A DNA stretch of 55,118 bases from an uncultured Deferribacteres bacterium (GTDB lineage: Bacteria > Zhuqueibacterota > Zhuqueibacteria > Zhuqueibacterales > Geothermadaptataceae), in NCBI GenBank assembly GCA_964014485.1, contig CAXHAT010000023.1:1-55118 (forward strand), written 5' to 3'. Each line of letters begins with the position of its first letter. The stretch's first letter is position 1. Both the position numbers and the translations under genes were made by a program. Positions 15,270 through 52,276 of this stretch are shown here, piece by piece. Under the pieces are notes generated by a model. It did no database searches. It was not told where the DNA came from and saw nothing but the letters and a program-made list of their open reading frames with translations.

Positions 15270-18094
15270 AGTTGAGCCGATTACATATCGACGGTTTTGG
15301 CGCACTTGTCGAGGAAGATTTTGAGTTTGGACCGAATTTGAACATCGTTCTCGGGCCAAACGAAGCGGGGAAATCCACGTTGCAGCAAGCGTTGCTGACG
15401 ATGCTGTACGGTGTTTACCAGGGCGGACGCTCCTCGCCGCTTGAAAAACGGACACACGCACGGTTCCGTCCATGGAGCGGCGCCAAGTACGGCGGCAGTC
15501 TTTACCTTGCGAGCAATTCGGGGGAAGAATTTTTAATTACCCGAAAATTCGACTATCCGGAGCCGGAAACGCATATTTTTGATGCAAAAACGGGGCGCGA
15601 GATCACTGATCAATTTACGCGCAAGCGGCGCGGTTTCGTGGATTTTATTGACCGTCATCTCGGCATGTCGAAGCCGGTTTTTGAAGCCGTTGCATGTGTC
15701 AAGCAAGGGGATTTAACCACGCTTTCCAAGCATGAAGCTCAGGAAATCGCCGATACGATTATCCGCCTTGTCGACAGCGCCGCCACTGACGTTTCCGCAC
15801 GCATGGCGCTGAATCGTCTCTCGGCTGCGATTCGCATGTTCGGCACGGAACGCAGCAAGTCCGGCCCGTTGTTTCGAGCTTATCAAACGATGAACGACTG
15901 CAAACGAAAAATCGATGAACGTCAAAAACTGAGCGAATCGCTTGCCGAAGATTATGCACGGTTGCACGAGATTACCGAAGAGATTTCGTTTCTTGTTGAG
16001 CGGGAATCTGCGCTCAAGAAAGATCTGCAAAGCTGGAATTATCATGCGCTGAAAAACCGCTTCGAGCGCTTTCAAAAGCTCTCCGTGGAAAAACAGGCGT
16101 TACAGAGAAAAGTCGACCAAACTTCGCAATTGGCGGTCATTTCCCAGCATGATCGCGACCAGGTTTTGAAATGGATGACGCTGCGCAAACGCTTGAAACA
16201 TGATCGCGACATGCGCATGAAGGAGCTTGAAACGTCGGAAAAAACGCTTGCGGAAAAGACGATTGAAATCGAGGCGATTCCGGTAGACAAAGAATTTTGG
16301 CAAAAAAATCAGGACGCATCCTTTTTCGAAATTCAGCAAGAATGGGAAAAACTCGACGCACAAAAAAGCGACCGTGAAAGAGACGCTGGAGAACTCGAAA
16401 AAATATATGACCGCGAGGGATTGACGCCGGAAGTGCGCAAGGCGTTGGACGAATTGGGCGGCGAAAAACATGATGATATTCGGAAAAACGCGAACGCCGT
16501 AGCCGAACGCAGCGAAGAGATTCACGCGCTGGAAGAAAGCCGAATCAAGCATCGGAAGATTTCAAGCTTTCTGCGCGGAGCGACTGGTTTGATTTTGACC
16601 GCGATTTTGCTGCTCTCATCCACTGCTTCAACGACGGTTCAGGAAAACATTTTAGCGATGACTCAGGCGGCGGACTGGCTTGAATACGTCGTCGGAACGA
16701 TCATTTTGCTTTGGCTGACGTTCGAATATTTGCTTGCCAATTCCGTTCGCCACATTGAGGAGAGTTTGAGCGGCGAAAAACAGGCGCTGCTCATCGCGCA
16801 GTCGTTCATGAAAAAAAACCTCCAACCTTTTCGCGTCACTGTTTATGAAGAGCTTCTCGATCTGCAAATCAAGTACACGAAACTGCAATCGCTTCATTCG
16901 CAGGCGGCTGCAAACATGCGTGATATTGAAGCGCGTGAAGAGCGTCTTTTAGACTGGTTCAAAAAATTTCATTATGACGCTTTTAGCAAGGAACACCTGC
17001 AGGCCATCAAACAACAGCTTAAGATCGGGCGCAAATCCTGGGATGACATTCGCAGCCTGAAGGAGCGCATTTCCGGGATAGAACAATATTTGAGCGAACG
17101 GGACGACAAGCTGGACGAGGCGACCGACCAAATCAAAAAGACTCTGGAAAAGGCGGACTGTTGGAGCGGCGTTTTCGAAGAAGACACGACACGCTTCCTG
17201 GAACTGGCAAATTCGACACAAAAATTAGATCTATTGCACGGCGAGCTCAAGCATGTTTCCGCTCGGGAACAAGAGCTGATTGACGGGACGACGCCCGAGG
17301 CGCTTGAAACCAATGTTTTCGAGCTCAGAAAACTGCTCGGCGACGGCGCAGCCACGCCGCCGACTACAAGTCAAAGCGAGTTGAGCGAATCGCTTTCGCA
17401 AGCACAGAGAAAGCTGCAAAACTTAAAGGTAGAGCACGCCGCGCTGCAGGAACGGATCGCAGAGCGTGAGACGAAGCTCCCGGACTTGTCGGAGCTGGAA
17501 GAGATGCTAGCGACGACGGAGACTGAAATTGAAGAGATGACGACCAAACGTCAGGCGTTGGAGCTGGCCTACGAAACACTGCGAAACATTGCCGCCGAGG
17601 CCCACAAGGATTTTGCGCCCAGACTTGCCCAAAACATCAGCAATCGCTTGGCCACAATAACTGACAATCGCTACCAGGAACTTTACATCGATCCCGCCGA
17701 TTTCACGATACGCGTTGCGCACGGCGAGGCGCGCACATTGACGGAACTGGAATTTCTCAGCTTCGGCGTTCAGGAAATCGTCTATCTGCTCATGAGATCG
17801 AGCATTGCTCAACTGTTTTCAAACGCTTCTGAAAGCGTCCCCCTGTTTTTCGACGACCCGTTGGCCCACGCTGACGACAAACGAAAGGGCAACGTCCTGC
17901 TGCTTCTTTCCCGCTTGGCGGAGCAGCAACAACTTTTCTATTTTACAAAAGACCAGACCATTGCAGATGAACTCGCCGAGTATAAAATCGACTACAATCT
18001 CATCACTTTGCGTCGTTCGGACGAAACCAAGACTTCTCGGAACGCCTGGAGAACCAGCAGGGATGAGGACGAAAACGACGATTATTCCTTTTAA
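15266..18094 (+). CDS. YhaN/Rad50-like SMC ATPase with internal hydrophobic segments
   Basis: Walker A GPNEAGKST; long coiled coils; LSFG signature; FFDDPLAHAD Walker B/D-loop; overlaps the upstream nuclease gene. Confidence 0.88.
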   Translation: MKLSRLHIDGFGALVEEDFEFGPNLNIVLGPNEAGKSTLQQALLTMLYGVYQGGRSSPLEKRTHARFRPWSGAKYGGSLYLASNSGEEFLITRKFDYPEPETHIFDAKTGREITDQFTRKRRGFVDFIDRHLGMSKPVFEAVACVKQGDLTTLSKHEAQEIADTIIRLVDSAATDVSARMALNRLSAAIRMFGTERSKSGPLFRAYQTMNDCKRKIDERQKLSESLAEDYARLHEITEEISFLVERESALKKDLQSWNYHALKNRFERFQKLSVEKQALQRKVDQTSQLAVISQHDRDQVLKWMTLRKRLKHDRDMRMKELETSEKTLAEKTIEIEAIPVDKEFWQKNQDASFFEIQQEWEKLDAQKSDRERDAGELEKIYDREGLTPEVRKALDELGGEKHDDIRKNANAVAERSEEIHALEESRIKHRKISSFLRGATGLILTAILLLSSTASTTVQENILAMTQAADWLEYVVGTIILLWLTFEYLLANSVRHIEESLSGEKQALLIAQSFMKKNLQPFRVTVYEELLDLQIKYTKLQSLHSQAAANMRDIEAREERLLDWFKKFHYDAFSKEHLQAIKQQLKIGRKSWDDIRSLKERISGIEQYLSERDDKLDEATDQIKKTLEKADCWSGVFEEDTTRFLELANSTQKLDLLHGELKHVSAREQELIDGTTPEALETNVFELRKLLGDGAATPPTTSQSELSESLSQAQRKLQNLKVEHAALQERIAERETKLPDLSELEEMLATTETEIEEMTTKRQALELAYETLRNIAAEAHKDFAPRLAQNISNRLATITDNRYQELYIDPADFTIRVAHGEARTLTELEFLSFGVQEIVYLLMRSSIAQLFSNASESVPLFFDDPLAHADDKRKGNVLLLLSRLAEQQQLFYFTKDQTIADELAEYKIDYNLITLRRSDETKTSRNAWRTSRDEDENDDYSF

Positions 18095-18319
18095 CTGATG
18101 TTACGCACCAACCAAGATAAAATTCTGTGCTTCGGCTTTTGTATAAGCTGAGTACTGCAGATTGAAACTGGAACTGCCCGCCCTCCCAGACACATTTGTT
18201 TCAGTCATTCCCGCGCAGGCGGGAATCCAGAAAATGGCGCCCACCCACTGGATTCCCGCCTGCACGGGAATGACTTTGACAAAAGTTTCTATCGCGTCGC
18301 GGCTGTAGCGTAACATCAG
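18095..18319. mobile_element. MITE copy A (CTGATGTTACGC family), 225 bp
   Basis: TIRs ctgatgttacgc/gcgtaacatcag; 7-bp target duplication CTTTTAA at 18088-18094 and 18320-18326; cargo gtcattcccgcgcaggcgggaatccag...ctggattcccgcctgcacgggaatgac. Confidence 0.88.
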
Positions 18320-18540
18320 CTTTTAAAACAAAATGGCGATTTCACCGCTTTGTTTAGCCATTTCACCAATTTGTTTCTTCTCACATCCGAGCTAACCTGC
18401 CGCAAAAAGCGGCCAAACCTAAAGCAAACTAATTGACCGCTACATGGCAAAGACCACATACAAAAATCTGTTTTTTAGGACTTTACACCAGGAATAAAAT
18501 TCTCCGTCTGAAAGCCGAATGTTGAATTTCTTTCACATTC

Positions 18541-18556
18541 TGGCACGCGTCTTGAG
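18541..18556 (+). promoter_or_regulatory. Putative sigma54 -24/-12 promoter
   Basis: TGGCACG-CGTC-TTGA; candidate enhancer repeats tggcgatttcaccg (18334-18347) and tagccatttcacca (18355-18368), 21 bp apart. Confidence 0.6.
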
Positions 18557-18583
18557 AATGCGTTGTTTGTTTTTCCACGCATT

Positions 18584-18686
18584 TCAGATGATTGATCAAC
18601 ATCGTTCTCCATCTCGTTTTAGCAATCATCTGACGATCAACCGGCGAGGCAGGGATGTGACCAGCGCCGAGCCGGTTATTTTTTTA
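18584..18686 (+). ncRNA. Candidate sRNA or structured leader upstream of mscS
   Basis: 11-bp stem tcagatgattg/caatcatctga with CU-rich loop, then aaccggc...gccggtt followed by a T-tract. Confidence 0.45.
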
Positions 18687-18763
18687 TTCAATATATATTA
18701 TTTCTCACACACTTTAAGAAGCATTCACTTCAATTCATCAAGTTCACCATGGAAGGAGGAACA

Positions 18764-19621
18764 ATGGAAAACGTGCAAGATTTTGGCGCTTACGTGAAGA
18801 ATCTAATCATTCAATATGCGCCAGACGTTGTGTTAGCGCTCGTGACTCTTATCGTCGGTTTCTGGATTGTCGGTCTCGTCGTTAAAGCGATAGACCGAGC
18901 TATGGAAAGAGGAAACCTCGACATGGGAATCCGAGGTTTTCTGCGCAGCATTGCATCCGTTTTGTTCAAAGTTCTTGTTCTGTTCAGCGTCGCCGGGATG
19001 TTGGGTATTCAAACGACGTCATTTATTGCAATTCTTGGCGCGGCAGGTTTGGCGGTTGGTCTTGCATTGCAAGGCAGCTTGGCAAATTTTGCCGGCGGCG
19101 TATTGATTTTGCTCTTTAAGCCCTACAAAGTCGGCGATTTCATCGACGCACAAGGCCATGCCGGAACGGTAAAAGAGATTCAGATTTTCAATACAGTTTT
19201 GAAGACGCCTGATAATAAAAATGTTATCATCCCGAACGGCGCGATCTCAAACGGCAGCATCACCAACGCTTCCGTCGAAGCCACTCGCCGGGTCGATATG
19301 GTCTTCGGCATCGGCTATGACGACGATATTCAGCAATTCAAGGATTTGTTGAATAGACTTATCGAAGGCGATGAGCGCATTTTGCGTGAACCGAAATGGC
19401 AGGTCGTCGTTTCGGAATTGGCCGACAGCTCCGTAAACTTTACGGTTCGCGTTTGGTGCAATCGCAGCGATTATTGGGGCATTTATTTCGACATGCACGA
19501 ACGCGTCAAGATCGAATGCGACAAGGCGAACATCTCGATTCCTTACCCGCAGCAAGACGTTCACATGTATAGTCACAGCCAGGAAGACCTTGGCGTGATT
19601 AGCGTTAAATCAGAAGCCTAA
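18764..19621 (+). CDS. mscS: Small-conductance mechanosensitive channel
   Basis: GAAGLAVGLALQGSLANFAGG, KPYKVGD, IPN, RRVDMVFGIGY, ISIPYPQ. Confidence 0.95.
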   Translation: MENVQDFGAYVKNLIIQYAPDVVLALVTLIVGFWIVGLVVKAIDRAMERGNLDMGIRGFLRSIASVLFKVLVLFSVAGMLGIQTTSFIAILGAAGLAVGLALQGSLANFAGGVLILLFKPYKVGDFIDAQGHAGTVKEIQIFNTVLKTPDNKNVIIPNGAISNGSITNASVEATRRVDMVFGIGYDDDIQQFKDLLNRLIEGDERILREPKWQVVVSELADSSVNFTVRVWCNRSDYWGIYFDMHERVKIECDKANISIPYPQQDVHMYSHSQEDLGVISVKSEA

Positions 19622-19705
19622 ATTTGAGACAAACAACAGTTTACACGACTTCGACGCGCAGGCGTTCTCGCGTGTCATAGGTTTTCGCATTCCACTCCTA
19701 ATTGA

Positions 19706-19759
19706 AAGGCCGATTATGAAAGCGCATCCATTCCGCGTTATCATAAATCGGCCTTCTTT
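19706..19759 (+). terminator. Probable terminator hairpin after mscS
   Basis: aaggccgattatga...tcataaatcggcctt followed by cttt. Confidence 0.55.
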
Positions 19760-19949
19760 GTTACATTGAATCGTTGCTGTACGGTGCGAAAGCGCCGAAC
19801 CGCAAACACGTTTTGAAATTTTCGGGGGAGCAATCGTCCTCCGCATCTCCCGGCGGACGTTTTTCTTTGGACAAGCATCAACCGCGACTTACTTTGCGTT
19901 TGGCCATCGAGGCCGCAAAGTCCTACCAGATTTTTTCACGGAGGTTTAG

Positions 19950-20336
19950 ATGAAATTTTTGATTAACCGAAGCGCTTTCTCTCGCTTTGCGCAAATTTTT
20001 GTTGCGCTGGCGTTTGTCGGCCTTTTCTCGTGCGCCAACGAAGGCGAGCAGAAATTGAAGGCCAAAATCACCTACTACGCCATCCCTGGCTGACCGCACT
20101 GTGCACAAGTGACGACCATCGTGAATGGTCTTGCGGAAGAGTATGAAGGGACGTTGGAATGCAAGGTGCTTGACGCCACCGCCGAAGAAAGCGTCGCCAA
20201 AATCAAGGAATACGGTTTTGGCAACCACGGCCTCGTCATTTTTGATGCTGAGGACAATGTGAAGTGGAAGAAAGACGGGCACATGATGCGCGAGCCGGAA
20301 ATCCGCGCTGCATTGACGGAAGTGCTGCAAGAATAA
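19950..20336 (+). CDS. Predicted selenoprotein: thioredoxin-fold lipoprotein with U-P-H-C motif (TGA 20091-20093 read as Sec48), 128 aa
   Basis: GGAGG RBS; ATG 19950 in frame with TGA 20091 and with the downstream ORF 20109-20336; lipobox LFSC; ITYYAIPG-U-PHC. Confidence 0.8.
20094..20136 (+). promoter_or_regulatory. Bacterial SECIS-like hairpin
   Basis: Lower stem ccgca/tgcgg directly after the UGA; upper stem gaccat/atggtc with loop cgtga, 26 nt from the UGA. Confidence 0.65.
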
Positions 20337-20864
20337 ATGCAAGACGCACAATTTATTCTGAAAACGGAGCGGCTTGTCCTGCGAAAAATGTCGTTCGACG
20401 ACGCTCCGTTTATTCTTGAACTCCTGAACGATCCCGCGTTTCTGCGCAACATCGGCGACAAGAGCGTGAGGACGTTAGAAGACGCGAAAAATTATATCCT
20501 GACCGGCCCGATGGCTAGTTACGAAAACTTTGGTTTCGGGCTATACTTGACAGAATTGCGAGAATCGGGCGTGCCGGTCGGCATATGCGGGCTGGTGAAA
20601 AGAGAAACGCTGGAGCACGCCGATGTTGGTTTTGCGTTCATGCCGCAATATTGCGGGAAAGGTTTTGCCACGGAATCGGCGGCAGCCGTTCTAAAACTCG
20701 GCAAGACGAAGTTTCGCCTCGAACGCATCGTCGCCATCGTCTCTCCAGACAACGAGGCTTCGATTAACGTGCTTCAAAAACTGGGGATGTGTTTCGAAGA
20801 GATGATCCAAATGTCGCCAAACGCCGAGCCTTGCGCACTCTATGGACCAAGCCCGGCGTCTTGA
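20337..20864 (+). CDS. GNAT (RimJ/RimL-type) N-acetyltransferase
   Basis: ETERL-like start, DVGFAFMPQYCGKGFATE, NEASINVLQKLGM. Confidence 0.9.
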   Translation: MQDAQFILKTERLVLRKMSFDDAPFILELLNDPAFLRNIGDKSVRTLEDAKNYILTGPMASYENFGFGLYLTELRESGVPVGICGLVKRETLEHADVGFAFMPQYCGKGFATESAAAVLKLGKTKFRLERIVAIVSPDNEASINVLQKLGMCFEEMIQMSPNAEPCALYGPSPAS

Positions 20865-20908
20865 TGGTGTTGTTCGATTTCTCATGCCATAATTCAGACT
20901 TGCTCAGA

Positions 20909-21589
20909 ATGAAAAAATACACGATACCAATCTTGCTGCTATCCTTCCTCTTCTCTTGCTCCTCAGGAAATGATGCGACGAGCCTATTCAACGGGACTGA
21001 TTTGAGCGGCTGGCACGTCGACGTCCCGGCAATGGATGACGACTCGACGATCAAATCGCCGTTCATTGTGCGTGACGGTATGCTCGTCAGTTTGGGAGAA
21101 CCGCGCGGCCATCTGATCACCGACGCGACTTTCCAGGATTATCGTCTCGAGGTCGAATATCGTTTTGCCGGAGAGCCGGGCAATTGCGGCGTTCTTGTGC
21201 ATGCCTCAACGCCGCGTGCGCTTTACTCAATGTTTCCCAAATCGCTTGAAGTGCAAATGGCGCACGAAAATGCGGGTGATTTTTGGTGCATTGTTGAAGA
21301 TATAACCGTGCCGGATATGGAATCCAGGCGCGGCCCGAAGCAAGAATGGGGCGTCACGGAAGGTAAAAAGCGGCGCATCCTCAACCTGACCGACGGTTCA
21401 GAAAAACCACTGGGCGAGTGGAACAAGATGGCGGTTGAGTGCCGTGGCGACGAAATCAAAGTTTGGGTCAACGGCGATTTGGTGAATCACGGTTTTGACT
21501 GTACGGCAAGCGCTGGGCGCATCGCCTTGCAAGCTGAAGGCTCGGAAGTGGAATTTCGAAAAATCGTCCTGACTTCGATTGCAAAATAG
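20909..21589 (+). CDS. DUF1080 (3-keto-disaccharide hydrolase-like) lipoprotein
   Basis: Lipobox LFSC; LFNGTDLSGW, GNCGVL, GEWN, IALQAEG. Confidence 0.88.
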   Translation: MKKYTIPILLLSFLFSCSSGNDATSLFNGTDLSGWHVDVPAMDDDSTIKSPFIVRDGMLVSLGEPRGHLITDATFQDYRLEVEYRFAGEPGNCGVLVHASTPRALYSMFPKSLEVQMAHENAGDFWCIVEDITVPDMESRRGPKQEWGVTEGKKRRILNLTDGSEKPLGEWNKMAVECRGDEIKVWVNGDLVNHGFDCTASAGRIALQAEGSEVEFRKIVLTSIAK

Positions 21590-21604
21590 CACAAAATCGC
21601 CAGA

Positions 21605-22735
21605 CTATTTGCTGAAAGGCGCTTCGACAAGCGCGCCGTAGGGACTGCCTCCTGTCTCGGCGTCCAGGTCCAAAATTTTGGTAAACTTCTTTCCGTCTTT
21701 CGTCAGCGAAAAAACAACGCCGTCGTTAGAGTCGCCGCCAAATCGCGTCATGCCCCAGAGCAGGCCGTTACATTCAACCAAATTTCCTTCAGGGAAGCGT
21801 CCGTTTACGATGTCAAAATCATGGATCTTCCTGTATTTTGAATCGTCCTTGTCGATGTAAAAAATGACCCCTGCGTTATTTTTACCTCGGGAAGCCGTCA
21901 TGCCCCAAAGTTTATCGTTACTTTCAATCAAATCTCCCAATGCCGGATAGTCAAGATCGTGAACTTTTTTGAATCCGTTTCCATCGATATTGACGCTAAA
22001 AACGCCGCCCTCGTTATGCGCGCCCCCTCGCGTCGTCATGCCCCAGAGTTTTCCACTGCTCAAGATCAGGCCGCTTTCCGGCTGGCCTCCTTTGCTTCCT
22101 CCAAAGTCGAAAATTTTGGTAAATCGGCTGCCGTCAATGTTCAGGCGAAAAATGACGCCCACGCCCTGAGAGCCGCCGTCGCGAGTCGTGCCATAGAAAT
22201 TGCCGTCGTTTTCCAGTAAAGCGTTGCGCGGATGACTGCCGTTTACACCGTCAAAATCATGCACTTTTTTAAAGCCGGAACCGTCAAGGTTAAGGCTGAA
22301 AATAACGCCGTGATTGTTTTTGCCGCCGGTACGCGCCATACCCCAAAGTTTGCCGTCGCTTTCTATCAACTCGCCAAACGGGTTTCCGCCGTTATCGCCG
22401 TCAAAATAGTGAATTTGGGTAAAACCGGAACCGTCTGTTTTGATGCTAAAAATGACGCCGTGATCGCCTTTGCGCGCCTTGTGGTCTTTGCCGGAGGTCA
22501 GTCCCCAAAGCTTGCCGTTACTGAAAGTTAAACTCGCAAAAGGATATCCTGAGCCGCCGTCAAAGTCGTGAACTTTCTTAAAATCGCCGTTTTCCGGGTT
22601 TAAGTGAAAAATCGTTCCGAAACCGTAAGCGCCCTTCGTCGAAGCGACTCCCCAGAGTCTCATCGTTTGGCCAAGCGCCGCACTTACGCTGGCGAGGAAA
22701 ACAACCAGGCTCAAAACATGTTTAAATTTTTTCAT
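21605..22735 (-). CDS. Secreted tandem-repeat (GloVer/TIGR03803-like) beta-propeller protein
   Basis: Signal peptide; about 7 repeats of P.G.L.E..GKLWGMT..GG....GVIF......G..F.K.HDF. Confidence 0.85.
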   Translation of the reverse strand: MKKFKHVLSLVVFLASVSAALGQTMRLWGVASTKGAYGFGTIFHLNPENGDFKKVHDFDGGSGYPFASLTFSNGKLWGLTSGKDHKARKGDHGVIFSIKTDGSGFTQIHYFDGDNGGNPFGELIESDGKLWGMARTGGKNNHGVIFSLNLDGSGFKKVHDFDGVNGSHPRNALLENDGNFYGTTRDGGSQGVGVIFRLNIDGSRFTKIFDFGGSKGGQPESGLILSSGKLWGMTTRGGAHNEGGVFSVNIDGNGFKKVHDLDYPALGDLIESNDKLWGMTASRGKNNAGVIFYIDKDDSKYRKIHDFDIVNGRFPEGNLVECNGLLWGMTRFGGDSNDGVVFSLTKDGKKFTKILDLDAETGGSPYGALVEAPFSK

Positions 22736-22887
22736 GGAAAAATTCTGTTTTCGGTTGGGAGAGAATGGTTAGAGCTTCATTAACGGCACCATAATCTCAT
22801 GCTCTTAATGAAGTAGCAATCACAAATGGTCTCAGCAGCAATGCTCTTTGTAAGTACGTGCTCATCCCCAAAATATTGTGTTTATAA

Positions 22888-23210
22888 CTGATGTTACGGT
22901 TGCGCGCGGCAACGCACAACCTAAATCTTGGAGCAAACATCGTCTCATTAGCCGCGCGCTTCAGCGCGTGGACCCGGTCGGGCGCTCTTCTTTTTCTCCC
23001 GCCGAGTCAACTCGGCGGGAGAAAAAGGGGAATGCGCTTGTACTCATGCCTACGCGCTGAAGCGCGCAGCTAATGAGAGTGTCGCGTCATTTGCATTTCC
23101 CGTGAATTGTGACTTCGCCAACAGTATCCTTCAGAGCGGAGCTAATGAGAATCAAAAGTTGATCTCAGGCTCTGATCGAGCGCGCTAAACGACGCGTGCG
23201 TAACATCAAG
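22888..23210. mobile_element. MITE copy B (CTGATGTTACG family), 323 bp
   Basis: Ends ctgatgttacg / cgtaacatcaag; 7-bp target duplication TTTATAA at 22881-22887 and 23211-23217; cargo is a ctcattagc...gctaatgag REP doublet (22943-23078). Confidence 0.82.
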
Positions 23211-23308
23211 TTTATAAACTAAAAAATAACCATCGTGACGGCGAGTTCTCTGATGGAAATCTCAAGCGAACGGCAGGTAGAGTTTAAACATTCCTCAAAC
23301 GCGAACGC

Positions 23309-28804: not shown

Positions 28805-29085
28805 CTGATGTTACGCGCCATCTTCATAATACAGCAACTGTTTATCAACGCCATTCCGCAGAAGCGCACTACCGTCAACCTGATTTCGGGACGTCCGAAT
28901 TCTCGTTCCCAATCTCTGGATTGGGAACGCAATTGCACCCGAAACTCCAGTTTCGAGTGAATACTTTGGCTCGAAACCGGAGTTTCGAGCCCATCTCCAT
29001 TCCCAAACCGGAGTTTGGGAACGAGCCGCAATGAGGCGCTGTTTTCGGTTTGGCTTCAGAAATGCTTTGCTGCGCGTAACATCAG
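28805..29085. mobile_element. MITE copy C (CTGATGTTACGC family), 281 bp
   Basis: TIRs ctgatgttacgcgc/gcgcgtaacatcag; target duplication TGAGTCA/TGAGTAA; cargo of gttccca..tgggaac and cgaaac..gtttcg hairpins; highly similar to 51936-52217. Confidence 0.9.
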
Positions 29086-29281
29086 TGAGTAAATCTTTTT
29101 CAGAATGCGACGATTCATCGTCGTCGGCAAGGCCCACTCAAACACTGAAGCGTTTGACGCCGGGGTTATTTCCTGGAGACCGTGAAAGCTGGCGGGAAGC
29201 TCTAAAGGCGGGGCCCGTTCGCAACGGCGTTTCGTGACATGTATTTAGATACAAATTTCCATGCTTTTTTTTTCTTGAAAA

Positions 29282-43691: not shown

Positions 43692-43710
43692 TAACTTTGC
43701 ACCCCATGTT

Positions 43711-43726
43711 TTCAATCAGTATGCCA
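43711..43726 (-). promoter_or_regulatory. Putative sigma54 -24/-12 promoter
   Basis: Minus strand TGGCATA-CTGA-TTGAA, about 20 bp upstream of the ATG at 43691. Confidence 0.65.
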
Positions 43727-43843
43727 CAACTAGCGAGAATCTGACCCGCAGGCTCAAAATTGGTTTGATTTTTTTTATTGAAGGGAGTTTAAATGATTGC
43801 CCTAATGGTTTTATTCGCTCTGTTCTTAGCAACGCCCCAGCAG

Positions 43844-43945
43844 TCGTAAAATTTTGCGTACAGATATGCGTACCAAAGATCAGATCTCGCTCGCAAATTT
43901 TTACGATTTTGCATTATACGCTCACAAACTCGTAGAAATTTACGA
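43844..43945. promoter_or_regulatory. Three 16-bp palindromic candidate enhancer (UAS) sites
   Basis: tcgtaaaattttgcgt (43844), tcgcaaatttttacga (43891), tcgtagaaatttacga (43930); consensus TCGYA-N6-TRCGW. Confidence 0.7.
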
Positions 43946-45490
43946 TTTCCCGATTCCATACTTGGCCATTTTGTTCCGAATTGTGCCTTCCGTGACGCCG
44001 AGAGCAACCGAAGCGCGCGAGCGATTCCAGTTGTGACGAATGAGCGCTTTTTCGATATGCGGCGCTTCAGCCTTTGCAACAACTTCAGCAAGCGAAGCTA
44101 GCGACTCTTCCTTCGTTTTTTGTCGCTGGAAGGCGTCAAACGCTTCCTTAAAATCTTGCGGAAGGTTGGCGCGTCGAATGATGTTGACGTTTTCGGGAAG
44201 CTTGGCCGCCAAGCGCTCGACGAAGTTCCGTAATTCCCGTATATTTCCTTCCCAGGGATACTCTCTTAAGAATGTGATCACATCTTGTGCAAACTTGCTC
44301 GCATTTTTCTTTTGCGCTTCGGGAGAAATATCCAAAAAATGGTATGCAAGCATACGGATGTCTTCTCGCCTTTCGGCCAGAGACGGAATGCGAAAATGGT
44401 AGACTAGTAGCCGATACATGAGGTCTTCGCGAAACTTGCCTCCGTTGACAAGCTCTTGTAGCGACGTCTGCGATGCTGCAATAATTCTGACATTGACCTG
44501 TGTCGTTTTCGTACCTCCGACCGGACGAATCTCACGGCTCTCCAAAAACCTCAACAGCTTGGCTTGCTGAGCAAGAGGGATGTTTTGCACTTCGTCCAGA
44601 AAAACCACACCGTTGTTGGACGCCGCAAGCAATCCTTCCCAATCTTCTTCGGCGCCTGTAAAAGCGCCTTTCTTGTGACCAAAAAGCGTACTCTCCAACA
44701 AGTTCTCGGGAATAGTGCTGAAATCAATAGGCGTAAACGGAGCTTTGCCGCGATCACTGAATTTATGGATGAGTTCCGCGACAACTTCTTTTCCCGTCCC
44801 AGTAGCGCCTTCGATGAAAACGGTTGAGACGCTTTTCGCGGCAGTGTCGATTTGTTTGACGAGCTTGCGGATGGTTTCACTGCGTCCCTTCAAGCCAGCT
44901 TCGTTGTATTTCTTCAGTAGACCTTCATCATCGACATGGGCGAAGTACTCTTTGATTTTTTGGCTATTGCGCAGATGTGGAGAGATGACGCAGACGAAGC
45001 GTTCGAGCAGATCAAGGTCTTGTTTGGAGAATACGGGGCCGTTCAGCCGATTGACAAGCATTAAAGAGCCGAGGAATTGGCCTTCAGCCTCGAGAGCGCT
45101 GGCTATAATGGATTGAGCGTCATGAGTATGCGTCACTTGTTTCCGCAGTCTTTCGTCGTCTTTGGCGTCCCTACAGAAAAACGGCTTTCGATTTTGATAA
45201 ATCCAGTAGTTGACGGAGTATTGTATATGTTTGTCTTTCTCCGCCTTACTCGATTTACCTTTCCCTTGAATCATTCTGACTGTTTCGTTGGTTTGCGGGT
45301 TCATCATAAGCAGGAAGGCTTCGTGAGCCGCAAACAATTGCTTCGCTTCGTAACGGGATAAGCGAAGGATCTCTTCGAAGTCGTCGATGGCGGCGAGCGT
45401 CTTTGCCAGTTCCGTAATTCGCACCAGAGCATGAAGTCGGTTCGACTCCGGCGTTTTTGCAGTTCTCTTAAAAACATTCATTTTCGCCAC
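43940..45490 (-). CDS. GAF-domain sigma54-dependent transcriptional activator (Fis HTH)
   Basis: N-terminal GAF; GATGTGKE; ESTLFGHKKGAFTGA; FLDEV; WEGNIRELRN; HTH. Confidence 0.92.
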   Translation of the reverse strand: MAKMNVFKRTAKTPESNRLHALVRITELAKTLAAIDDFEEILRLSRYEAKQLFAAHEAFLLMMNPQTNETVRMIQGKGKSSKAEKDKHIQYSVNYWIYQNRKPFFCRDAKDDERLRKQVTHTHDAQSIIASALEAEGQFLGSLMLVNRLNGPVFSKQDLDLLERFVCVISPHLRNSQKIKEYFAHVDDEGLLKKYNEAGLKGRSETIRKLVKQIDTAAKSVSTVFIEGATGTGKEVVAELIHKFSDRGKAPFTPIDFSTIPENLLESTLFGHKKGAFTGAEEDWEGLLAASNNGVVFLDEVQNIPLAQQAKLLRFLESREIRPVGGTKTTQVNVRIIAASQTSLQELVNGGKFREDLMYRLLVYHFRIPSLAERREDIRMLAYHFLDISPEAQKKNASKFAQDVITFLREYPWEGNIRELRNFVERLAAKLPENVNIIRRANLPQDFKEAFDAFQRQKTKEESLASLAEVVAKAEAPHIEKALIRHNWNRSRASVALGVTEGTIRNKMAKYGIGKS

Positions 45491-45558
45491 TCGGTTTAAA
45501 AAAGTGTTCCGATTTCCGTTCAGTTTAAAAGTTACGACAGTCTAAAAATCTGAGCGTT

Positions 45559-45777
45559 TTACTTGGATTTTTTTCCTGACATAGCGCTGTTCATCATTGC
45601 TTCGGTTGTCATCTGCCGATCAATAACCACTTGCAGCGTATCATTGATCGTTTTCAGAAAACAATATAGATCTTCATCGAAACCTTGCAAGCGGGTCATG
45701 TCGGGCATAGGGCCGGTTAGTTTTCCGCGATTTACGGCGTTCGGATCAGAAATAACATCAGGCCAATCGTCAATCAT
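45559..45777 (-). CDS. Small hypothetical protein (72 aa)
   Basis: AAAGGAG RBS upstream of ATG 45777; MIDDWPDVISDPNAVNRG...; lies between the kinase and activator genes. Confidence 0.6.
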   Translation of the reverse strand: MIDDWPDVISDPNAVNRGKLTGPMPDMTRLQGFDEDLYCFLKTINDTLQVVIDRQMTTEAMMNSAMSGKKSK

Positions 45778-45925
45778 GGCAGACTCCTTTTGTATGGAAT
45801 TGTTAATGGATTGATTTTCAGATTCTCGGCCGGTAAGCAAACCCCAGTTCTTATCCCCCTGGAATTGTCCCCCGAAAAACTGAAACGCTTCAGAACGGAA
45901 ACCGAAACGCGCAATTAGTAGACAA

Positions 45926-48715
45926 TTATGGCGCCAATCTTTCCTTAACCTTTTGCAAGAGTCGCATTTCCGCATCAGCTTCCTTAAGAATCGCCAGGCA
46001 TTTTTGGAATTCCGCTTTTGCTCGAGCGCGATCATTTTTATTTTCAAAGATTTGGCCGCGAAGGAAATAGGCTTTTGCAGAAGCAGCATTAATCTCAAGG
46101 ATTTTGCCCGAGGCTTTCAGCGCCTGCGCAAAATCGCCTTTGAGAAACCATGCTTCGGCTATGCAAAATTCGAAAAGATCACGCTCCCAGACCCCCAATT
46201 CTAACGCCGCAATGTATTCTGCAATCGCCGCATCAAAATTCTTTGTTTTTTCAAAATACTTTCCCTTTAAAAGATAATAATACTCTTTCTCAAAGTTTAC
46301 CGCAGCATCGCTAAAATGCTCTTCCATTTCATCAAGAAGCGCCAGCGCGGCTCCAGGCTCGCCCTGCTCCAGTCGCGCCAACCCGATAGCGCATTTCATT
46401 CGTATGTTTTCGGAGGACGAGCCGATGAATGGAGTCAATTCTTCCAATGCTTTATCGATTTTATCATTTTCAAAATACAAACGCGACAAAGCCAGGGCGC
46501 CTTCTCTTTTCTTGCCATTCCCTGAAGCCATCGTTTTATATTTTTGGAACAAACCTTTTGCTTCTTTCTGCTTACCTCTTCTCAAGGCCAATCGTCCCTT
46601 AAGCAGCGTGATGGACTCAGATTTCTCAACCAGAGGCGCCGCCTTTGCAAAAGCTGAATCGGCCTCTTCATAACGCCCCGTGAGCATATACAGCCCGCCC
46701 AATCGACTATGCCCTTCTGCGGATTTCCATCCGTATTCGACAGCTTGTTTGTACGCCGTTTCCGCTTCATCAACTTGGCCCGACAAAACGAACGCATTGC
46801 CAAGATACCGGTAAAATTTCGCCTGCGATGAGTCGAGCTTTATCGCATGTTTGTAAGAATTAACGCCTCCTTCCAATTGACGTTCAATCGACGTAAGATG
46901 CCATCCCTTTTGAAACCACCACTCAGGATTATTTGGATCGAGCAAAATCAACTCTTCCAAGTTTTCAAAAACCACATCATAAAGCTTCTGAATCTTCGCT
47001 TGTTCCATTTCAAATTCAAACTTGGCGATTGGCGAGCCTTTGGGCAATCGTCTGAGCGCTTCGGCAGCATCTTTTAAAGCCCGCTCCTCATCTCCCAATA
47101 CGTTGTAAGTCTTCGCCCTTTCCAGGTAAGCTCGGGCGAACATAGGATCTAGATTTATCGCCTGATTCAGCGAATCAACCGCGTTCCCATACTCTCTCAT
47201 TTCCCTTTCGCGTTGAGCGCCGAGGTAATATAAATACGCCCGAAACGAAGAGGTCCTAACGCGCTCCCCCGAAACTTCATAACCAAGCGCTTTTGCTTCG
47301 AGCTCAAACCGGACCCTGGTGACAAAATCATCAACCATCTCATTCAAGTCAGAATCACCTAAAAAATCGAGAGCTTCAGTCAGTTTTTTTTCTCCGTTTT
47401 TAAGGTCATAAACGGTCACGGACAACCGCAAGTGATTGTCATTAATTCGAATAAACGAAGAGTGAATCGCAACCTCGATTTTCGTTTTTTCAAAAAGTTC
47501 TTTAGCCGTTTCCGAAGACATCTCGAGAAAGTTGGGCGCTTCGGCTTCATTAAACGGTGTGAGAAACTTCTCGGAAGGGATCAGATCGATGTATTTTGAT
47601 CGACTCAGACTGGCCTTGATCAACTCGGCAATAATAATTGATTTTTTTATATCTTCAGCATCAGTGCCGCCGTTAAGAATCGGCAGTACAGTGACGTTAA
47701 TTGTCGCCGACTGCCGGGGAGGGGTATCTCCAGATTCTTGGACAAAATAATAAGTAAACGACGTAGCCACTACTGCAAGCATCGCCAGCATTTTCTTGAG
47801 TATAGAAAAGCGTTTATTTTTTTTCGTCCTCTGAACTTCGTTTCTCCCATCATTCTTCTCCAAAAAACGCTGGCTGGCCGTTTCCAGCGTGACGTCATCA
47901 AGCGCATTTGATAAAGCATCTCCGTTTTGATATCGTCGTTCCGGCTCCTTCTCCAGCAACTTCATGATAATTGCACTCACGGAAGAAGAAATTTCGGGAT
48001 TAATTGTTTCCGGCGGAGCGGGGTCTTCATTGCCGATCGCATAGATGATAATTTCGTTAAACTCGCCGCGAAACGGCAATTGCCCCGTCAAAGCTTCGTA
48101 AAGCACAACCCCAAGCGCCCACAAATCAGACCGGGCGTCGGCGTCAAAACCGGCGACCTGCTCCGGCGCCATGTAGGCCGTTGTTCCGAGCGTATCTTGA
48201 TGGCGAGTCAGGCGCGTCTGAGAAGTAAAACGAGCGAGTCCAAAATCGGCGAGCTTAATCGTGCCGTCTTCGGCGAAAAGAAGGTTGGCGGGCTTTATGT
48301 CGCGGTGAATAATATCTTTCTTGTGCGCCATTGCCAAGCCTTTGGCAAGCCCTGCGGCCTGGTTGACCATATGATCTAATTCAATGTCGTCCGCTTCAAT
48401 CCGATCCTTCAACGAACCATTCTCGTAGCAGGCCATTGCGATAAAAAGACGGCCGTCGGGCGCTTGGTCAATTTCGTGAATCGTATAAATATTGGGGTGA
48501 TCCAAAGCCGAGGCTGTTTTGGCTTCCTGGATAAAGCGGAGTTTGACTTCTTCCTCAGCGGCAAGATAATGCGGCAAGAATTTCAGTGCGACAAGACGGC
48601 CAAGCGTTGTATCTTCGGCTTTATAAACCTCACCCATCCCCCCTCGCCCCAACTCTTCGATGATTCGGTACTTCGAAATCCGCTTGCCAATCATGCCGTT
48701 GGTAACTGAAAACAA
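45926..48715 (-). CDS. Transmembrane Hanks-type Ser/Thr kinase with C-terminal TPR region
   Basis: GRGGMGEVY, VALK, HRDIKPAN, DFG, YMAPE; single TM; multiple TPRs. Confidence 0.93.
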   Translation of the reverse strand: MFSVTNGMIGKRISKYRIIEELGRGGMGEVYKAEDTTLGRLVALKFLPHYLAAEEEVKLRFIQEAKTASALDHPNIYTIHEIDQAPDGRLFIAMACYENGSLKDRIEADDIELDHMVNQAAGLAKGLAMAHKKDIIHRDIKPANLLFAEDGTIKLADFGLARFTSQTRLTRHQDTLGTTAYMAPEQVAGFDADARSDLWALGVVLYEALTGQLPFRGEFNEIIIYAIGNEDPAPPETINPEISSSVSAIIMKLLEKEPERRYQNGDALSNALDDVTLETASQRFLEKNDGRNEVQRTKKNKRFSILKKMLAMLAVVATSFTYYFVQESGDTPPRQSATINVTVLPILNGGTDAEDIKKSIIIAELIKASLSRSKYIDLIPSEKFLTPFNEAEAPNFLEMSSETAKELFEKTKIEVAIHSSFIRINDNHLRLSVTVYDLKNGEKKLTEALDFLGDSDLNEMVDDFVTRVRFELEAKALGYEVSGERVRTSSFRAYLYYLGAQREREMREYGNAVDSLNQAINLDPMFARAYLERAKTYNVLGDEERALKDAAEALRRLPKGSPIAKFEFEMEQAKIQKLYDVVFENLEELILLDPNNPEWWFQKGWHLTSIERQLEGGVNSYKHAIKLDSSQAKFYRYLGNAFVLSGQVDEAETAYKQAVEYGWKSAEGHSRLGGLYMLTGRYEEADSAFAKAAPLVEKSESITLLKGRLALRRGKQKEAKGLFQKYKTMASGNGKKREGALALSRLYFENDKIDKALEELTPFIGSSSENIRMKCAIGLARLEQGEPGAALALLDEMEEHFSDAAVNFEKEYYYLLKGKYFEKTKNFDAAIAEYIAALELGVWERDLFEFCIAEAWFLKGDFAQALKASGKILEINAASAKAYFLRGQIFENKNDRARAKAEFQKCLAILKEADAEMRLLQKVKERLAP

Positions 48716-48934
48716 TCTAGCTGTGGAACAGGTCCGAATGTCAATCGCAAAGAGAGTCCTTCCTGGCCGCAGCCAATTGCTGCGTCAAGCTTGCAAGCGT
48801 TTCCCCTGAGTCGCGTTTTACAAGCAATCTCTCAAGAAAATCTATCGCGTCATGCGACGGGCGAGAGTAAATGTAATCAAATGGATTCCAGTTAACGAAA
48901 ACTGTTGTACGAAATTCGCAAAAAATTTCGAGTT

Positions 48935-50683
48935 TTAGATGCGCGCCTGGTAAGTGTAAAGCGCAAAGTAGCGCCCTTCCTTCGCGATCAACTCGTCATG
49001 CTTGCCGCGTTCGACGATCTTGCCGTCTTCGATCACTAAAATCTGGTCGGCTTTGCGGATCGTGCTCAATCTATGCGCGATGACAAAAGTTGTACGGCCT
49101 TGCATCAATTTTCCGAGGCTTTCCTGAATCAAAGCCTCGCTTTCCGTATCCAAATTGGAAGTCGCCTCGTCGAGAATCAAAATGTTCGGATCAGCCAGAA
49201 TGGCGCGCGCAATGGCAACGCGCTGGCGCTGTCCGCCGGAAAGCTTCACGCCGCGTTCGCCGATCAGCGTATTCAAGCCGTCTTCAAAACGATCAGTAAA
49301 TTCGTTGACATGCGCCGCCTTAACCGCTTCGTCGACTTCCGCTTCGCTTGCGTCAGGGCGGGGAAAAAGAATATTTTCGCGAATCGTTCCTTCAAACAAG
49401 AAATCGTCCTGCAAAACAACGCCGAGGCGGCTGCGAAAACTATCTAGTTTTACATGAGACAAGTCCAAGCCGTCAATCGTTACCGTGCCGGACTTTGGTT
49501 TGAGAAAAGAAGCCGCCAACCCGGCAATCGTCGTTTTGCCCGAGCCGGAACTGCCAACCAGCGCCGTCACCGAACCGCTCGGCGCCTCGAAGCTTATACC
49601 GTTGATTACGTCCTTACCCTCTTCATAGGCGAAAGAAACATTTTTGAATGAAATGTCGCCCTTGATTTCCGGCAGCGATTGCTCGCGTCCCGGCTCCAAA
49701 CCTTCGCGCTCCAGATTCAAGACTTCTTCCATCCTGTCAAGCCCGGCAAACGCTTCGGTGATTTGGCTGCCGATATTGCTCATTTGCACAATCGGCGCGA
49801 CCATGAATCCAAGGTAAAGCGTAAACGCAAAAAAATCGCCGATGGTCATTTGGTTGTCCAAAATCAGCGAACCGCCCGCACCCATGATGATGACCCCGGC
49901 GATTCCCATCAGCAACGTCGCGGCGCTGGTGATCAGGCTCGTTGAAGTCAGAGATTTTTTCACGTTCTCAAACAGCCGCTCAACGCCTTTCTCAAAAACT
50001 TTGACTTCTTGCTTCTCCGCATTAAAGCCCTTGATCACACGAATGCCGTTCAACGATTCGTTCAACCGCCCCGTCACTTCGGCGTTGATTTGTCCGCGTT
50101 TGCGAAAAATTGGCCGGATATAGCCAAAAGCTTTCATTGAAACAAAGCCAAACAAAATCATGGGCAGCAAAACATAAATCGTCATCCAGAAATTGATATT
50201 GATCATGATGATCAGGGAAGCGATGGAAGTCAAAACGCCGCCGAACATTTGCACCAGCCCGGTGCCGACGAGATTGCGCACGCCCTCAACGTCGGTCATA
50301 ATTCGCGAGACCAATTCGCCGGATTTTGTGTTGTCGAAATAGCTGATTGGCAGGTTGATGATTTGACGCTGCACTTTGGCGCGCAATAGCGAGATGAGAT
50401 GCTGTCCTTCAACACTCAAGAGTCGCGTCAGCGAAAAGGAAGTGATGGATTGCACCAAAACCGCCGCCGCAACCGCGAACAAAATGGGATAAAACAACGC
50501 CGTGTTGGCGTTTTGGATGACTTCGTCGATCAAGTACTTGCTCGCCCCGGGCAGCACCAGTCCCGCGACGCGGTTAAAAATGATTAGCACCAAGCCGAAA
50601 ATAATCAGCTTCTTGCGCGGCCAAATGATTTCCTTGAAGGCGTAACGAACAGTGGCCAAAGACGCTTTTTTCTTATTTTGCAT
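48935..50683 (-). CDS. ABC exporter, fused permease/ATPase (MsbA/Sav1866-like)
   Basis: TM domain; GSSGSGKTT, LSGGQRQR, LILDEATS, IAHRLST. Confidence 0.95.
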   Translation of the reverse strand: MQNKKKASLATVRYAFKEIIWPRKKLIIFGLVLIIFNRVAGLVLPGASKYLIDEVIQNANTALFYPILFAVAAAVLVQSITSFSLTRLLSVEGQHLISLLRAKVQRQIINLPISYFDNTKSGELVSRIMTDVEGVRNLVGTGLVQMFGGVLTSIASLIIMININFWMTIYVLLPMILFGFVSMKAFGYIRPIFRKRGQINAEVTGRLNESLNGIRVIKGFNAEKQEVKVFEKGVERLFENVKKSLTSTSLITSAATLLMGIAGVIIMGAGGSLILDNQMTIGDFFAFTLYLGFMVAPIVQMSNIGSQITEAFAGLDRMEEVLNLEREGLEPGREQSLPEIKGDISFKNVSFAYEEGKDVINGISFEAPSGSVTALVGSSGSGKTTIAGLAASFLKPKSGTVTIDGLDLSHVKLDSFRSRLGVVLQDDFLFEGTIRENILFPRPDASEAEVDEAVKAAHVNEFTDRFEDGLNTLIGERGVKLSGGQRQRVAIARAILADPNILILDEATSNLDTESEALIQESLGKLMQGRTTFVIAHRLSTIRKADQILVIEDGKIVERGKHDELIAKEGRYFALYTYQARI

Positions 50684-50860
50684 TTCTCAAAAAGTCAAAT
50701 TTTCGTTTCAAAAAGAATGATTTGAGCAAAAATTACGGCGAGCAATAAGAAGAAAATCAAGAATGGAATCAATCAAAAAAAGCACGGGACGGCGCCAAAC
50801 TTTTAGCTTGGGCTACACACAAATTCGAATCGGGTTCCGCTTCAAAGTTTGTTTGCCGTT

Positions 50861-51886
50861 TTAGTCGTTCTTTCCGCGAATCCGCATAATCTCTTTGTCG
50901 AAATCCGAGATGTAATCCTTGTCCTGCCTGACGCGATAACGCTCAAACTCCTTCTCCGCTTTCAGCTTCGCTTGCAAAGCGCTTATCTTCCCCTTGTTTT
51001 CCAGGATCGGGTAGTTGGACAATTCCAAGAAATTGTCGATGAATCGAGCCCAATCTTCCATTTTCATAAGGATTTGGCGCTGCGCCCGGTTTTCGGCCAA
51101 ATCAAGATAGGCGGAGATGATCTGATTCAATTCCTGAATATGCGCTTTGTTCAGGTAGTTTTTGGCAACGGCAACGTCGGATTTCAGGATTTTGCCGTCG
51201 GGCGCGCGTTTCCAGTTGGTCAAGCCCATGTACGTTTTTGCCGCGTCCGCCGAAGTGTAAACAATTTCCGCGGCGGTTTTTCCGGTAATCGCCCAGTGCA
51301 GCTTGTTTTGCACGGTCGCAAAAAATTCTTTGGTAGCAGGCGCGTTTTTATCGTAATCCGCGGAGAGCGCGTAAATATCGGTGATCTTCTGGTAAAAGCG
51401 GCGCTCGCTGGCGCGAATTTCGCGTATGCGTTCCAACAATTCATCGAAATAATCCTTGCCAAAAAGCCGCTTGCTCTGCTTGAGTCGTTCATCGTCCAGC
51501 GCAAAGCCTTTGATGATGTATTCTTTTAAGGTTTTCGTCGCCCAGATGCGGAATTGTGTCGCCTGATAAGAATTGACGCGATAACCGACGGAAATGATAG
51601 CGTCGAGATTATAGAAGTCAAGTTCTCTCTTAACCAGGCGTTTGCCTTCGGTTTGAACTGCTCGAATTTTTCGAGTAGTTGCCTTTTCGATGAGTTCGCC
51701 CGATTTGAATATCTCTTTCAAGTGATACGTAATTGTGTGGCTTTCTACTCCAAAAAGCCTGCCCATTGCTTTTTGCGTCAACCAAACCGTTTCGTCCTGC
51801 AGAAAGACTTCAATGTTGACATTGCCGTCACTGCCGGTGTAGAGCAGGAAATTGGATGAATTTTCGGGATTTTCTGTTTTATCCAT
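50861..51886 (-). CDS. RhuM family (virulence-associated/DNA-binding) protein
   Basis: VWLTQKAM, YNLDAIISVGYRVNS, QFRIWAT, IRASERRFYQK. Confidence 0.92.
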   Translation of the reverse strand: MDKTENPENSSNFLLYTGSDGNVNIEVFLQDETVWLTQKAMGRLFGVESHTITYHLKEIFKSGELIEKATTRKIRAVQTEGKRLVKRELDFYNLDAIISVGYRVNSYQATQFRIWATKTLKEYIIKGFALDDERLKQSKRLFGKDYFDELLERIREIRASERRFYQKITDIYALSADYDKNAPATKEFFATVQNKLHWAITGKTAAEIVYTSADAAKTYMGLTNWKRAPDGKILKSDVAVAKNYLNKAHIQELNQIISAYLDLAENRAQRQILMKMEDWARFIDNFLELSNYPILENKGKISALQAKLKAEKEFERYRVRQDKDYISDFDKEIMRIRGKND

Positions 51887-51935
51887 AAAATTTCGCCAAA
51901 TAGATGTTCACGATTCGCTGTGTGGATAGTGATAA

Positions 51936-52217
51936 CTGATGTTACGCGCCAGCTTCATAATACAGCAACTGTTTATCAGCGCCATTCCGCGGAGGCGCAC
52001 AATCGTCAATCTAATTTCAAGAAGCCCAAGATTCTCGATGCCAATCTCTGGATTGGCATCGCAATTGCCATCGAAACTCCAGTTTCGAGTAAATTCTTTG
52101 GCTCGAAACCGGAGCTTCGAACCCATCTCCATTCCCAAACCGGAGTTTGGGAACGAGCCGCAATGAGGCACTGTTTTCGGTTTGGCTTCAGAAATGCTTT
52201 GCTGCGTGTAACATCAG
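51936..52217. mobile_element. MITE copy D (CTGATGTTACGC family), 282 bp
   Basis: Ends ctgatgttacgc / gtgtaacatcag; 7-bp target duplication GTGATAA at 51929-51935 and 52218-52224; paralogue of 28805-29085. Confidence 0.9.
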
Positions 52218-52276
52218 GTGATAAAATAAAAGCCGTCCGACTGTGGTTTCACGATAGCAGCTAGGCGCAAACGAGC

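Follow-up and report, generated by a model that had tools for sequence, protein, structure and literature searches.

Short elements with IS701-clade ends and hairpin cores in the genome of an uncultured Deferribacteres bacterium

A contig of an uncultured Deferribacteres bacterium carries four short elements with common inverted ends and differing interiors, and the question they raise is which transposition system moved them and how hairpin repeats came to lie between their ends. The window analysed here is the whole stretch of 55,118 nucleotides of contig CAXHAT010000023.1 (contig C23 of the assembly GCA_964014485.1, genome G000), and the assembly is a metagenome bin of 8,403,271 bp in 465 contigs with 50.2% G+C and a completeness rated at 97%. 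We consider it very probable that these elements belong to a MITE (miniature inverted-repeat transposable element) superfamily mobilised in trans, now or formerly, by a DDE transposase of the transpos_IS701_2 clade of insertion sequences (IS), with cores composed of hairpin modules, including doublets of repetitive extragenic palindromes (REP), and that the resulting composites were later amplified.

A first-pass annotation of this DNA, made from the letters alone, had proposed four elements with shared inverted ends, each within its own 7-bp duplication, and all of this was confirmed. The elements (copies A to D) are bounded by CTGATGTTACG inverted ends, an 11-mer that occurs eight times in the window with at most one mismatch against 0.61 expected; none of 100 shuffles reached eight. 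The features are the following:

18088-18094, copy A's 7-bp target duplication on the left side, CTTTTAA, in which the TAA is the stop codon of the open reading frame (ORF) at 15266-18094
18095-18319, MITE copy A, 225 bp, of the rare subfamily F10 (3 members), ends CTGATGTTACGC / GCGTAACATCAG
18204-18274, REP1 hairpin doublet within copy A, GTCATTCCCGCGCAGGCGGGAATCCAG and, further on, its inverted partner, a module found free-standing at about 105–120 places of the genome
18320-18326, right duplication of copy A, CTTTTAA
22881-22887, left duplication of copy B, TTTATAA
22888-23210, MITE copy B, 323 bp, a singleton with F1/F8-like arms and another hairpin core
23211-23217, right duplication of copy B, TTTATAA
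28798-28804, left duplication of copy C, TGAGTCA
28805-29085, MITE copy C, 281 bp, of subfamily F3 (20 complete members)
about 28914 to 29024, core of copy C, with clustered TTCCCAA...TTGGGAA and TCGAAAC...GTTTCGA hairpins
29086-29092, right duplication of copy C, TGAGTAA, one mismatch against the left TGAGTCA
51929-51935, left duplication of copy D, GTGATAA
51936-52217, MITE copy D, 282 bp, of subfamily F3, right end TGTAACATCAG (one mismatch)
52218-52224, right duplication of copy D, GTGATAA

The right tip of copy B reads CATCAAG, with one base extra or changed, and an equally valid reading places this element at 22888-23209 with the 8-bp duplication GTTTATAA. Copies C and D, previously described as near-identical, agree at only 255 of 282 positions (90.4%). 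Copy A was correctly said to use a stop codon, and the 942-amino-acid (aa) ORF concerned terminates at the TAA that closes the left duplication. Strong folding as single-stranded DNA was calculated for copies A (−57.4 kcal/mol, z = −8.9) and C (−68.8 kcal/mol, z = −9.1), and no Rfam family was matched in any element.

The ends were searched for genome-wide, as had been proposed at first pass. In the 8.40 Mb of this genome, the exact 11-mer was found 184 times in the forward and 188 times in the reverse orientation (372 ends in all), and the 12-mer 173 and 178 times, against 0 and 0 for the reversed-letter control. Left and right ends were less than 550 bp apart in 176 of the 184 adjacent pairs, and 177 complete elements (end pairs) under 700 bp were counted; element sizes are 57–531 bp, no transposase lies inside them, and the only longer pairs contain foreign IS elements. 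Of the exact ends, 153 were unpaired, and 95 of these face a contig end within 350 bp, so that 94 of the 930 contig ends of the assembly are broken inside a copy of the family. The size of the family in this genome is estimated at roughly 260–300 elements. A pattern scan of the phylum (167 genomes, including this one) gave end counts at chance level in all genomes except this one, with one match in the genome G023. Additionally, metagenome contigs were scanned with two arm sequences, one of which found nothing, and the other only one unrelated locus, seen four times, that has no partner end, transposase or likeness to the present genome.

The length of the duplication was established from the complete set of 177 pairs. 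The 7-bp flanks were identical in 73 pairs and differed by at most one base in 107, and the corresponding comparison at other lengths gave no exact pair for 5 bp or 9 bp, six for 6 bp and 19 for 8 bp. The logo built from the 73 exact duplications reads T-T-A-n-T-A-A; nine of them are perfect TTANTAA, TAA closes 38 and TTA opens 34, and one half-site or both can be seen in 63. This makes the target a 7-bp palindrome with two sides, TTA-N-TAA, and the NNNNTAA site suggested from the window was thus half right, its TAA half standing but the whole site extending to TTA on the other side. Note that a duplication of this kind could be mistaken for one of 5 bp by assigning its first T and last A to the element. 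Duplications such as CTTTTAA, GTGATAA and ATTGAAT show these positions to belong to the duplicated target. Perfect TTANTAA sites number 754 in the 8.4 Mb, against about 2050 expected at equal base frequencies by our own arithmetic, and some of the 754 are duplications created by the MITEs themselves.

Five copies were found inside other repeats, and removal of the element together with one heptamer makes their flanks colinear with element-free paralogues (for example, TTTGTAA versus TTTGTTA, ATAGTAT versus ATAATAT, and TTATTCA versus TTACTCA). These five paralogous loci are empty sites within the genome itself, each with one related heptamer, and they bear out the original description of the elements as non-autonomous, end-bounded units inserted with a 7-bp duplication. 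A repeat of about 205 bp, present in dozens of copies with 75–86% identity (e.g., C6:53700-54130, C60:8034-8235 and C72:21167-21374), served as the insertion target of two MITE copies. Among the contigs of three public runs from one marine-metagenome study, which as contigs are silent on polymorphism, none joined across an empty site, and the contigs break at the elements; the summed word depth in the bins with copies A and C was 144–215, against about 7 in the bins beside them.

Full-length insertion sequences with such ends exist in other genomes. The sole phylum-mate with a full-length copy (genome G128) carries, on a contig of 1667 bp (C747, positions 525-1664), a 1140-bp element with exact 12-mer ends and one ORF of 360 aa, which scored 342.9 bits on the model NF049921 transpos_IS701_2 (cut-off 250) and also matched DDE_Tnp_1 and DDE_5 of Pfam. 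Relatives of this transposase were found at 45 loci in bins that bear the labels Saprospiraceae, Lentisphaerae, Neisseriaceae, Parabeggiatoa, Parashewanella, Thioploca, Gracilibacteria, Treponema and others. At 36 of 46 relative loci (a count that includes L001 and L002, which are one record), the gene lies between CT[GC]A[TA]GTTACGC ends that are 937–1358 bp apart. The exact 12-mer is present at both ends of 13 of these 36 paired loci, with L001 and L002 as one record and the flanks read by eye, and also in three plasmid copies. Exact 7-bp duplications of the TTANTAA type, among them TTATTAA, TTAATAA, TTATGGA, TTACTTG and CTAATCA, flank 16 of the 32 testable IS loci, and two more have duplications of 8 bp (printed flanks, read by eye). 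Copies with the same ends on plasmids of Acinetobacter schindleri (1112 bp) and Polaromonas naphthalenivorans (1102 bp) have the duplications TTATTTA and TATTTAA, respectively.

Because the ends, the duplication length and the target all agree with those of full-length IS, the parent family of the window elements is assigned, on sequence likeness, to the transpos_IS701_2 clade of the IS701 family. The unnamed members of this clade in Polaromonas naphthalenivorans (pPNAP01), Acinetobacter schindleri (pHZE23-1-1), Cyanobacterium sp. HL-69, Parabeggiatoa, Parashewanella and the Saprospiraceae bins are identical to the window elements in their terminal repeat, CTGATGTTACGC(A), and agree with them in duplicating 7 bp at a TTA-N-TAA-like target. 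They are 1.1–1.36 kb long with a transposase of 330–360 aa, whereas the window elements are 225–323 bp long, have no such gene and share with them only the first 13–19 bp. The trans-acting DDE transposase postulated at first pass was right in kind, and full-length copies encoding such an enzyme were found in other genomes (G128 and the plasmids), but not in the assembly to which the window belongs. In the IS701 group of the IS701 family, the direct repeats are of 4 bp. ISAba11 of Acinetobacter baumannii, the type of the ISAba11 group and a member of the IS701 family according to NCBIfam and annotation, shares with the clade the inner TTACGCA and the size of about 1.1 kb; its transposase, however, is only about 25.6% identical to that of the clade, its ends, TAGGACTTACGCA, have the tip TAGGAC instead of the CTGATG of the present family, and its direct repeat is 5 bp (CATAT at locus L050) instead of 7 bp. 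The direct repeats TATAG and ATTTA also appear for ISAba11 in the available part of an earlier account (PMC7885321). The catalogued 4 or 5 bp was not found in the window family or in the clade, both of which have 7 bp.

The same clade produced a second series of short elements. The genome of Candidatus Parabeggiatoa sp. HSG14 (G168, locus L016) contains 409 and 392 ends in the two orientations, with one intact transposase gene and two fragments. In 355 kb sampled from it, 28 elements of 62–339 bp were found, 15 of them with exact 7-bp duplications, and only 13–28 bp are common to these elements and the resident IS. In this genome, the IS clade gave rise to a MITE burst of its own, independent of the one described above. 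One intact transposase amid some 800 ends means that one gene is enough for hundreds of short elements, and the short common segment means that cores unrelated to the IS are normal for the clade. A Parashewanella genome with 13 and 13 ends has about 11 full or near-full IS copies and so no MITEs. Tandem TAACTGA repeats are described from marine Beggiatoaceae in the available part of MacGregor 2015 (PMC4679880), and a link to them was suggested by the TAA|CTGA junction of the elements; it was rejected, with no tandem copies in the present genome and none in the 355 kb of Parabeggiatoa.

A number of observations weigh against the assignment of a mover from this clade and against its recent action. 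The protein search for transposase relatives in the window's own genome was empty, PF13546 had no match there, the best tblastn result of 31 clade transposases against this genome was E = 0.02, and none of its ten DDE_Tnp_1 (PF01609) hits is bounded by the family ends. The closest relatives of the G128 locus (L001) are 73–82% identical and lie in Bacteroidota bins, and this copy may be mis-binned or recently transferred. In 70 of the 177 pairs, the 7-bp flanks differ by at least two bases. The median pairwise identity within subfamilies is 0.79–0.85, and when copies are traced by their interiors, the ends are no more clearly preserved than the arms beside them, so recent activity is not shown; a higher degree of conservation in the ends, relative to the arms, was looked for and not seen. 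Mobilisation in trans is, moreover, something that we infer and did not observe. At the same time, for a metagenome bin in 465 contigs, the absence of the transposase is weak evidence either way, and since contigs break at copies that are alike, those that do assemble are probably the more diverged. Other searches of this genome gave no match to PF13006 or PF12762 and three matches to PF00665. Short elements together with an autonomous IS of matching ends in one genome were found in other organisms and not here. Relaxed end pairs 700–6000 bp apart, tried as candidates for a full-length resident copy, turned out to be neighbouring MITEs or MITEs enclosing foreign IS.

The ten DDE_Tnp_1 hits could indicate that the mover is a transposase of another family present in the assembly, such as IS4 or ISAs1, rather than one of the IS701 type, all the more as an IS4-family ORF on contig C388 is enclosed by two family ends and is the best tblastn match to the clade, albeit insignificant (the E = 0.02 given above). 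Yet none of these genes is bounded by CTGATG ends, and such repeats as were found beside them are different, GTCACTAACTTTTCG and TAGTGTCCATCCG. The C388 locus is an F11-type MITE with foreign IS elements in its REP1 hairpin, and the exact ends, duplication length and target point to the IS701_2 clade; we consider a resident IS4 or ISAs1 mover highly unlikely.

The interiors were then compared among 173 complete elements, and the clustering suggested earlier yielded 38 clusters with 43, 28, 20, 17, 15, 6 and 4 members, six of two or three, and 25 singletons. Copies C and D fall into F3, copy A into a three-member cluster, and copy B is a singleton. The subfamily consensuses share only CTGATGTTACGCRC, with up to 19 bp between some arms (13–19 bp overall). 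When the first 55 bp of 670 ends (at most one mismatch) were clustered, eight large arm classes of 132, 86, 77, 60, 42, 30, 29 and 28 ends were obtained; a further 145 ends were singletons, close to what chance alone would give. In their main pairings the arms are fixed (42, 35, 18, 17 and 14 elements), and each mixed pairing was seen in only one or two elements. The interiors of A, B and C/D do differ as described, but the claim that each holds a separate REP family was correct only in part, in that only some of the hairpins are independent of the shells, i.e., of the end-bounded elements.

This independence was mapped by BLAST for each consensus. The outer 40–60 bp are almost confined to shells (0 free copies, with 1–2 in a few bins). 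The REP1 doublet module, in contrast, has about 110–120 free copies versus about 200 in shells, REP5 has 18–48 versus about 26–38, REP6 (a module nested in subfamily F9) about 95 versus 18, the F3 core 15–21 versus about 100, and the F1 core 5–8 versus about 120. The REP2 and REP3 motifs are mostly internal to shells, with 3 to 24 of 53–100 hits outside. The free copies of the modules have neither arms nor ends. The REP1 hairpin resembles the ATTCCC-N8-GGGAAT repeats of Neisseria, a possible link. It is found at 18204-18274 and at about 330 sites of the genome and starts with CGTC, like the CGTC-tagged REP superfamily in the available part of its description (PMC3733652), another possible link.

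Two of these modules are linked with REP-associated tyrosine transposase (RAYT) genes. A RAYT gene on C241 (188 aa, 101.3 bits, cut-off 80) is flanked by REP5 doublets, and those on C64 (86.1 bits) and C76 (79.4 bits) are flanked by REP6; among the seven Y1_Tnp hits of this genome, no RAYT adjoins REP1, REP2 or REP3. The presence of such genes and the occurrence of the cores as free copies would fit a spread of the whole family by RAYTs, in the manner of REP and of REPINs (REP doublets forming hairpins), with the inverted ends as incidental flanks. Against this, the free copies lack arms and ends, REP1, REP2 and REP3 have no RAYT beside them, and the end-bearing units, with their 7-bp duplications and empty sites bounded exactly at the ends, show the behaviour of DDE and not of HUH enzymes, which makes this explanation very improbable.

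The first-pass annotation had instead seen the shells as carriers that ferry interchangeable REP clusters and so couple two mobility systems. As an outcome, this was borne out for REP1, REP5 and REP6, which have both free and shell copies, with RAYT genes flanked by the latter two. Shells with DDE-type ends enclose 39 of the 99 REP1 doublets and 28 of the 101 REP5 doublets, while 52 and 66, respectively, occur free. The REP1 doublet is found in shells of differing arm classes (0/2, 10, 11 and 13), and subfamily F5 has little beyond a RAYT-type REP5 doublet between its ends (7–15 bp on each side), with exact 7-bp duplications at 13 of its 15 copies. A dedicated carrier, with interchangeable ends that evolved for ferrying REP clusters and for coupling the RAYT and DDE systems, is nevertheless improbable in our view. 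The major subfamilies each have their own arms, with the common segment noted above, rather than one shell with swappable cargo; REP2 and REP3 are mostly shell-internal; minimal elements of 57 and 64 bp exist that consist of arms alone without a core; and the Parabeggiatoa MITEs show an equal variety of lengths alongside a resident IS.

Moreover, unrelated IS and MITEs are also nested in the shells, as accretion predicts. Subfamily F9 is F1 enclosing a second kind of MITE, an F8-type element at C25:31228-33005 contains an IS4-family IS, and in the F11-type MITE of C388 genes of the ISAs1 and IS4 families are inserted in the REP1 hairpin. The frequent nested insertions and deletions make the mixed make-up look like accretion followed by amplification, and accretion is better supported than a dedicated carrier. 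The IS in the F8-type element (C25:31409-32928, L079) has an ORF of 409 aa (NF033592, 145.5 bits) and the ends GTCACTAACTTTTCG, and a short derivative with the same ends, bearing a REP6 doublet, is nested in F9, which means that a second MITE family also encloses a RAYT-type repeat. The genes inserted on C388 (410-3681, L075; ISAs1 family, 377 aa, and IS4 family, 440 aa) suggest that there are IS elements targeting REP hairpins.

For the two kinds of doublet, the nearest-neighbour label agreement was 0.71 and 0.78 versus shuffled maxima of 0.66 and 0.73, which suggests that free and shell doublets are partly separate populations, in a test from which capture events are not countable. A further and more speculative possibility, which we put forward tentatively and hold to be rather less probable than its negation, is that RAYT-dependent REP doublets were captured between DDE ends and ride an unrelated system without their own RAYT, and that the palindromic doublets may themselves give rise to new subfamilies of MITEs when a single IS end beside a hairpin is duplicated in inverted form. 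If true, this would explain why the IS701 clade has spawned MITEs by the hundred, their cores unrelated, in two genomes that are far apart.

Under the preferred reading of a trans-mobilised MITE superfamily, the transposase of the IS701_2 clade would move the elements in trans by cut-and-paste or copy-in DDE chemistry, would recognise the terminal repeat of about 14 bp, CTGATGTTACGCRC, and would insert them at the AT-rich palindrome TTA-N-TAA with cuts staggered by 7 bp, giving rise to the 7-bp duplication. Its gene may be unassembled, unbinned or lost, which would leave a mostly old orphan family. At least five major subfamilies are distinguished, each with its own subterminal arms and a strongly folding core and with only the ends in common. 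REP-type hairpin doublets make up the cores; several of these doublets are also present as free repeats, and two flank RAYT genes. The composites most likely arose via the insertion of REP doublets or small elements into MITEs, via deletion, or via inverted duplication of an end beside a hairpin; the DDE route would then have amplified them, and the MITE would in effect have carried REP doublets to new sites. The data show the ends, the duplications, the target, the empty sites, the agreement of the ends with full-length IS in other genomes, the division of the modules between free and shell copies, and their RAYT association; the act of mobilisation, the order of steps by which the composites were assembled and what became of the transposase are what we infer here.

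The kind of element described here is well known, and Correia and Nezha elements are likewise bacterial MITEs mobilised in trans. The window elements resemble MITEAba12, which according to the available part of its description (PMC6382973) is also short and non-coding, with inverted ends matching an IS, a target duplication, many copies and a strong potential for hairpins. They differ from other bacterial MITEs in having an IS701-type parent (as assigned above) that is not found in the genome, subfamilies sharing only their ends, and REP-doublet cores. The REP5 and REP6 doublets flank RAYT genes and are dispersed as inverted doublets, like the REPINs in the available part of Bertels and Rainey 2011 (PMC3116915), except that the 28 REP5 doublets in shells are enclosed by DDE-type ends with 7-bp duplications. 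A MITE in a group I intron of Candidatus Thiomargarita nelsonii (Flood et al. 2016, PMC4853749) is likewise a case of two fused non-autonomous elements spreading together in a repeat-rich marine genome; the element types, ends and duplications (a 10-bp repeat or TATAG) are different there, and the available part of that report identifies no IS parent. In the literature searched, the end sequences were found only as chance primers, and no paper combined "IS701 family", MITE and "target site duplication"; in the available parts of publications on REPINs, RAYTs and MITEs, no REPIN-in-MITE arrangement was found described. Within the same partial coverage, neither the present family nor the 7-bp behaviour of the clade was found.

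A parent IS family can now be given for a repeat that breaks about a tenth of the contig ends of this assembly, and a behaviour that is not catalogued (ends of 14 bp and duplication of 7 bp at TTANTAA) is defined for a widespread clade of the IS701 family, from which bursts of MITEs have come at least twice, in this genome and in that of Parabeggiatoa. With the REP-doublet cores, the fusion of two kinds of non-autonomous DNA into a single mobile unit has a concrete example that can be put to the test.

The insertions also bear on gene annotation. An ORF of at least 100 aa ends inside the duplication at 30 of 173 elements, versus 67 of 753 control TTANTAA sites, and the stop is a TAA abutting the element end in 21 elements. 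Since 30 of the 173 copies are inserted exactly where a long ORF has its stop codon, the family shapes the 3′ ends of genes.

The window additionally contains, at 4695-5113 on the plus strand, a class A bacterial RNase P RNA, which was matched by the full-length model with 294.2 bits.

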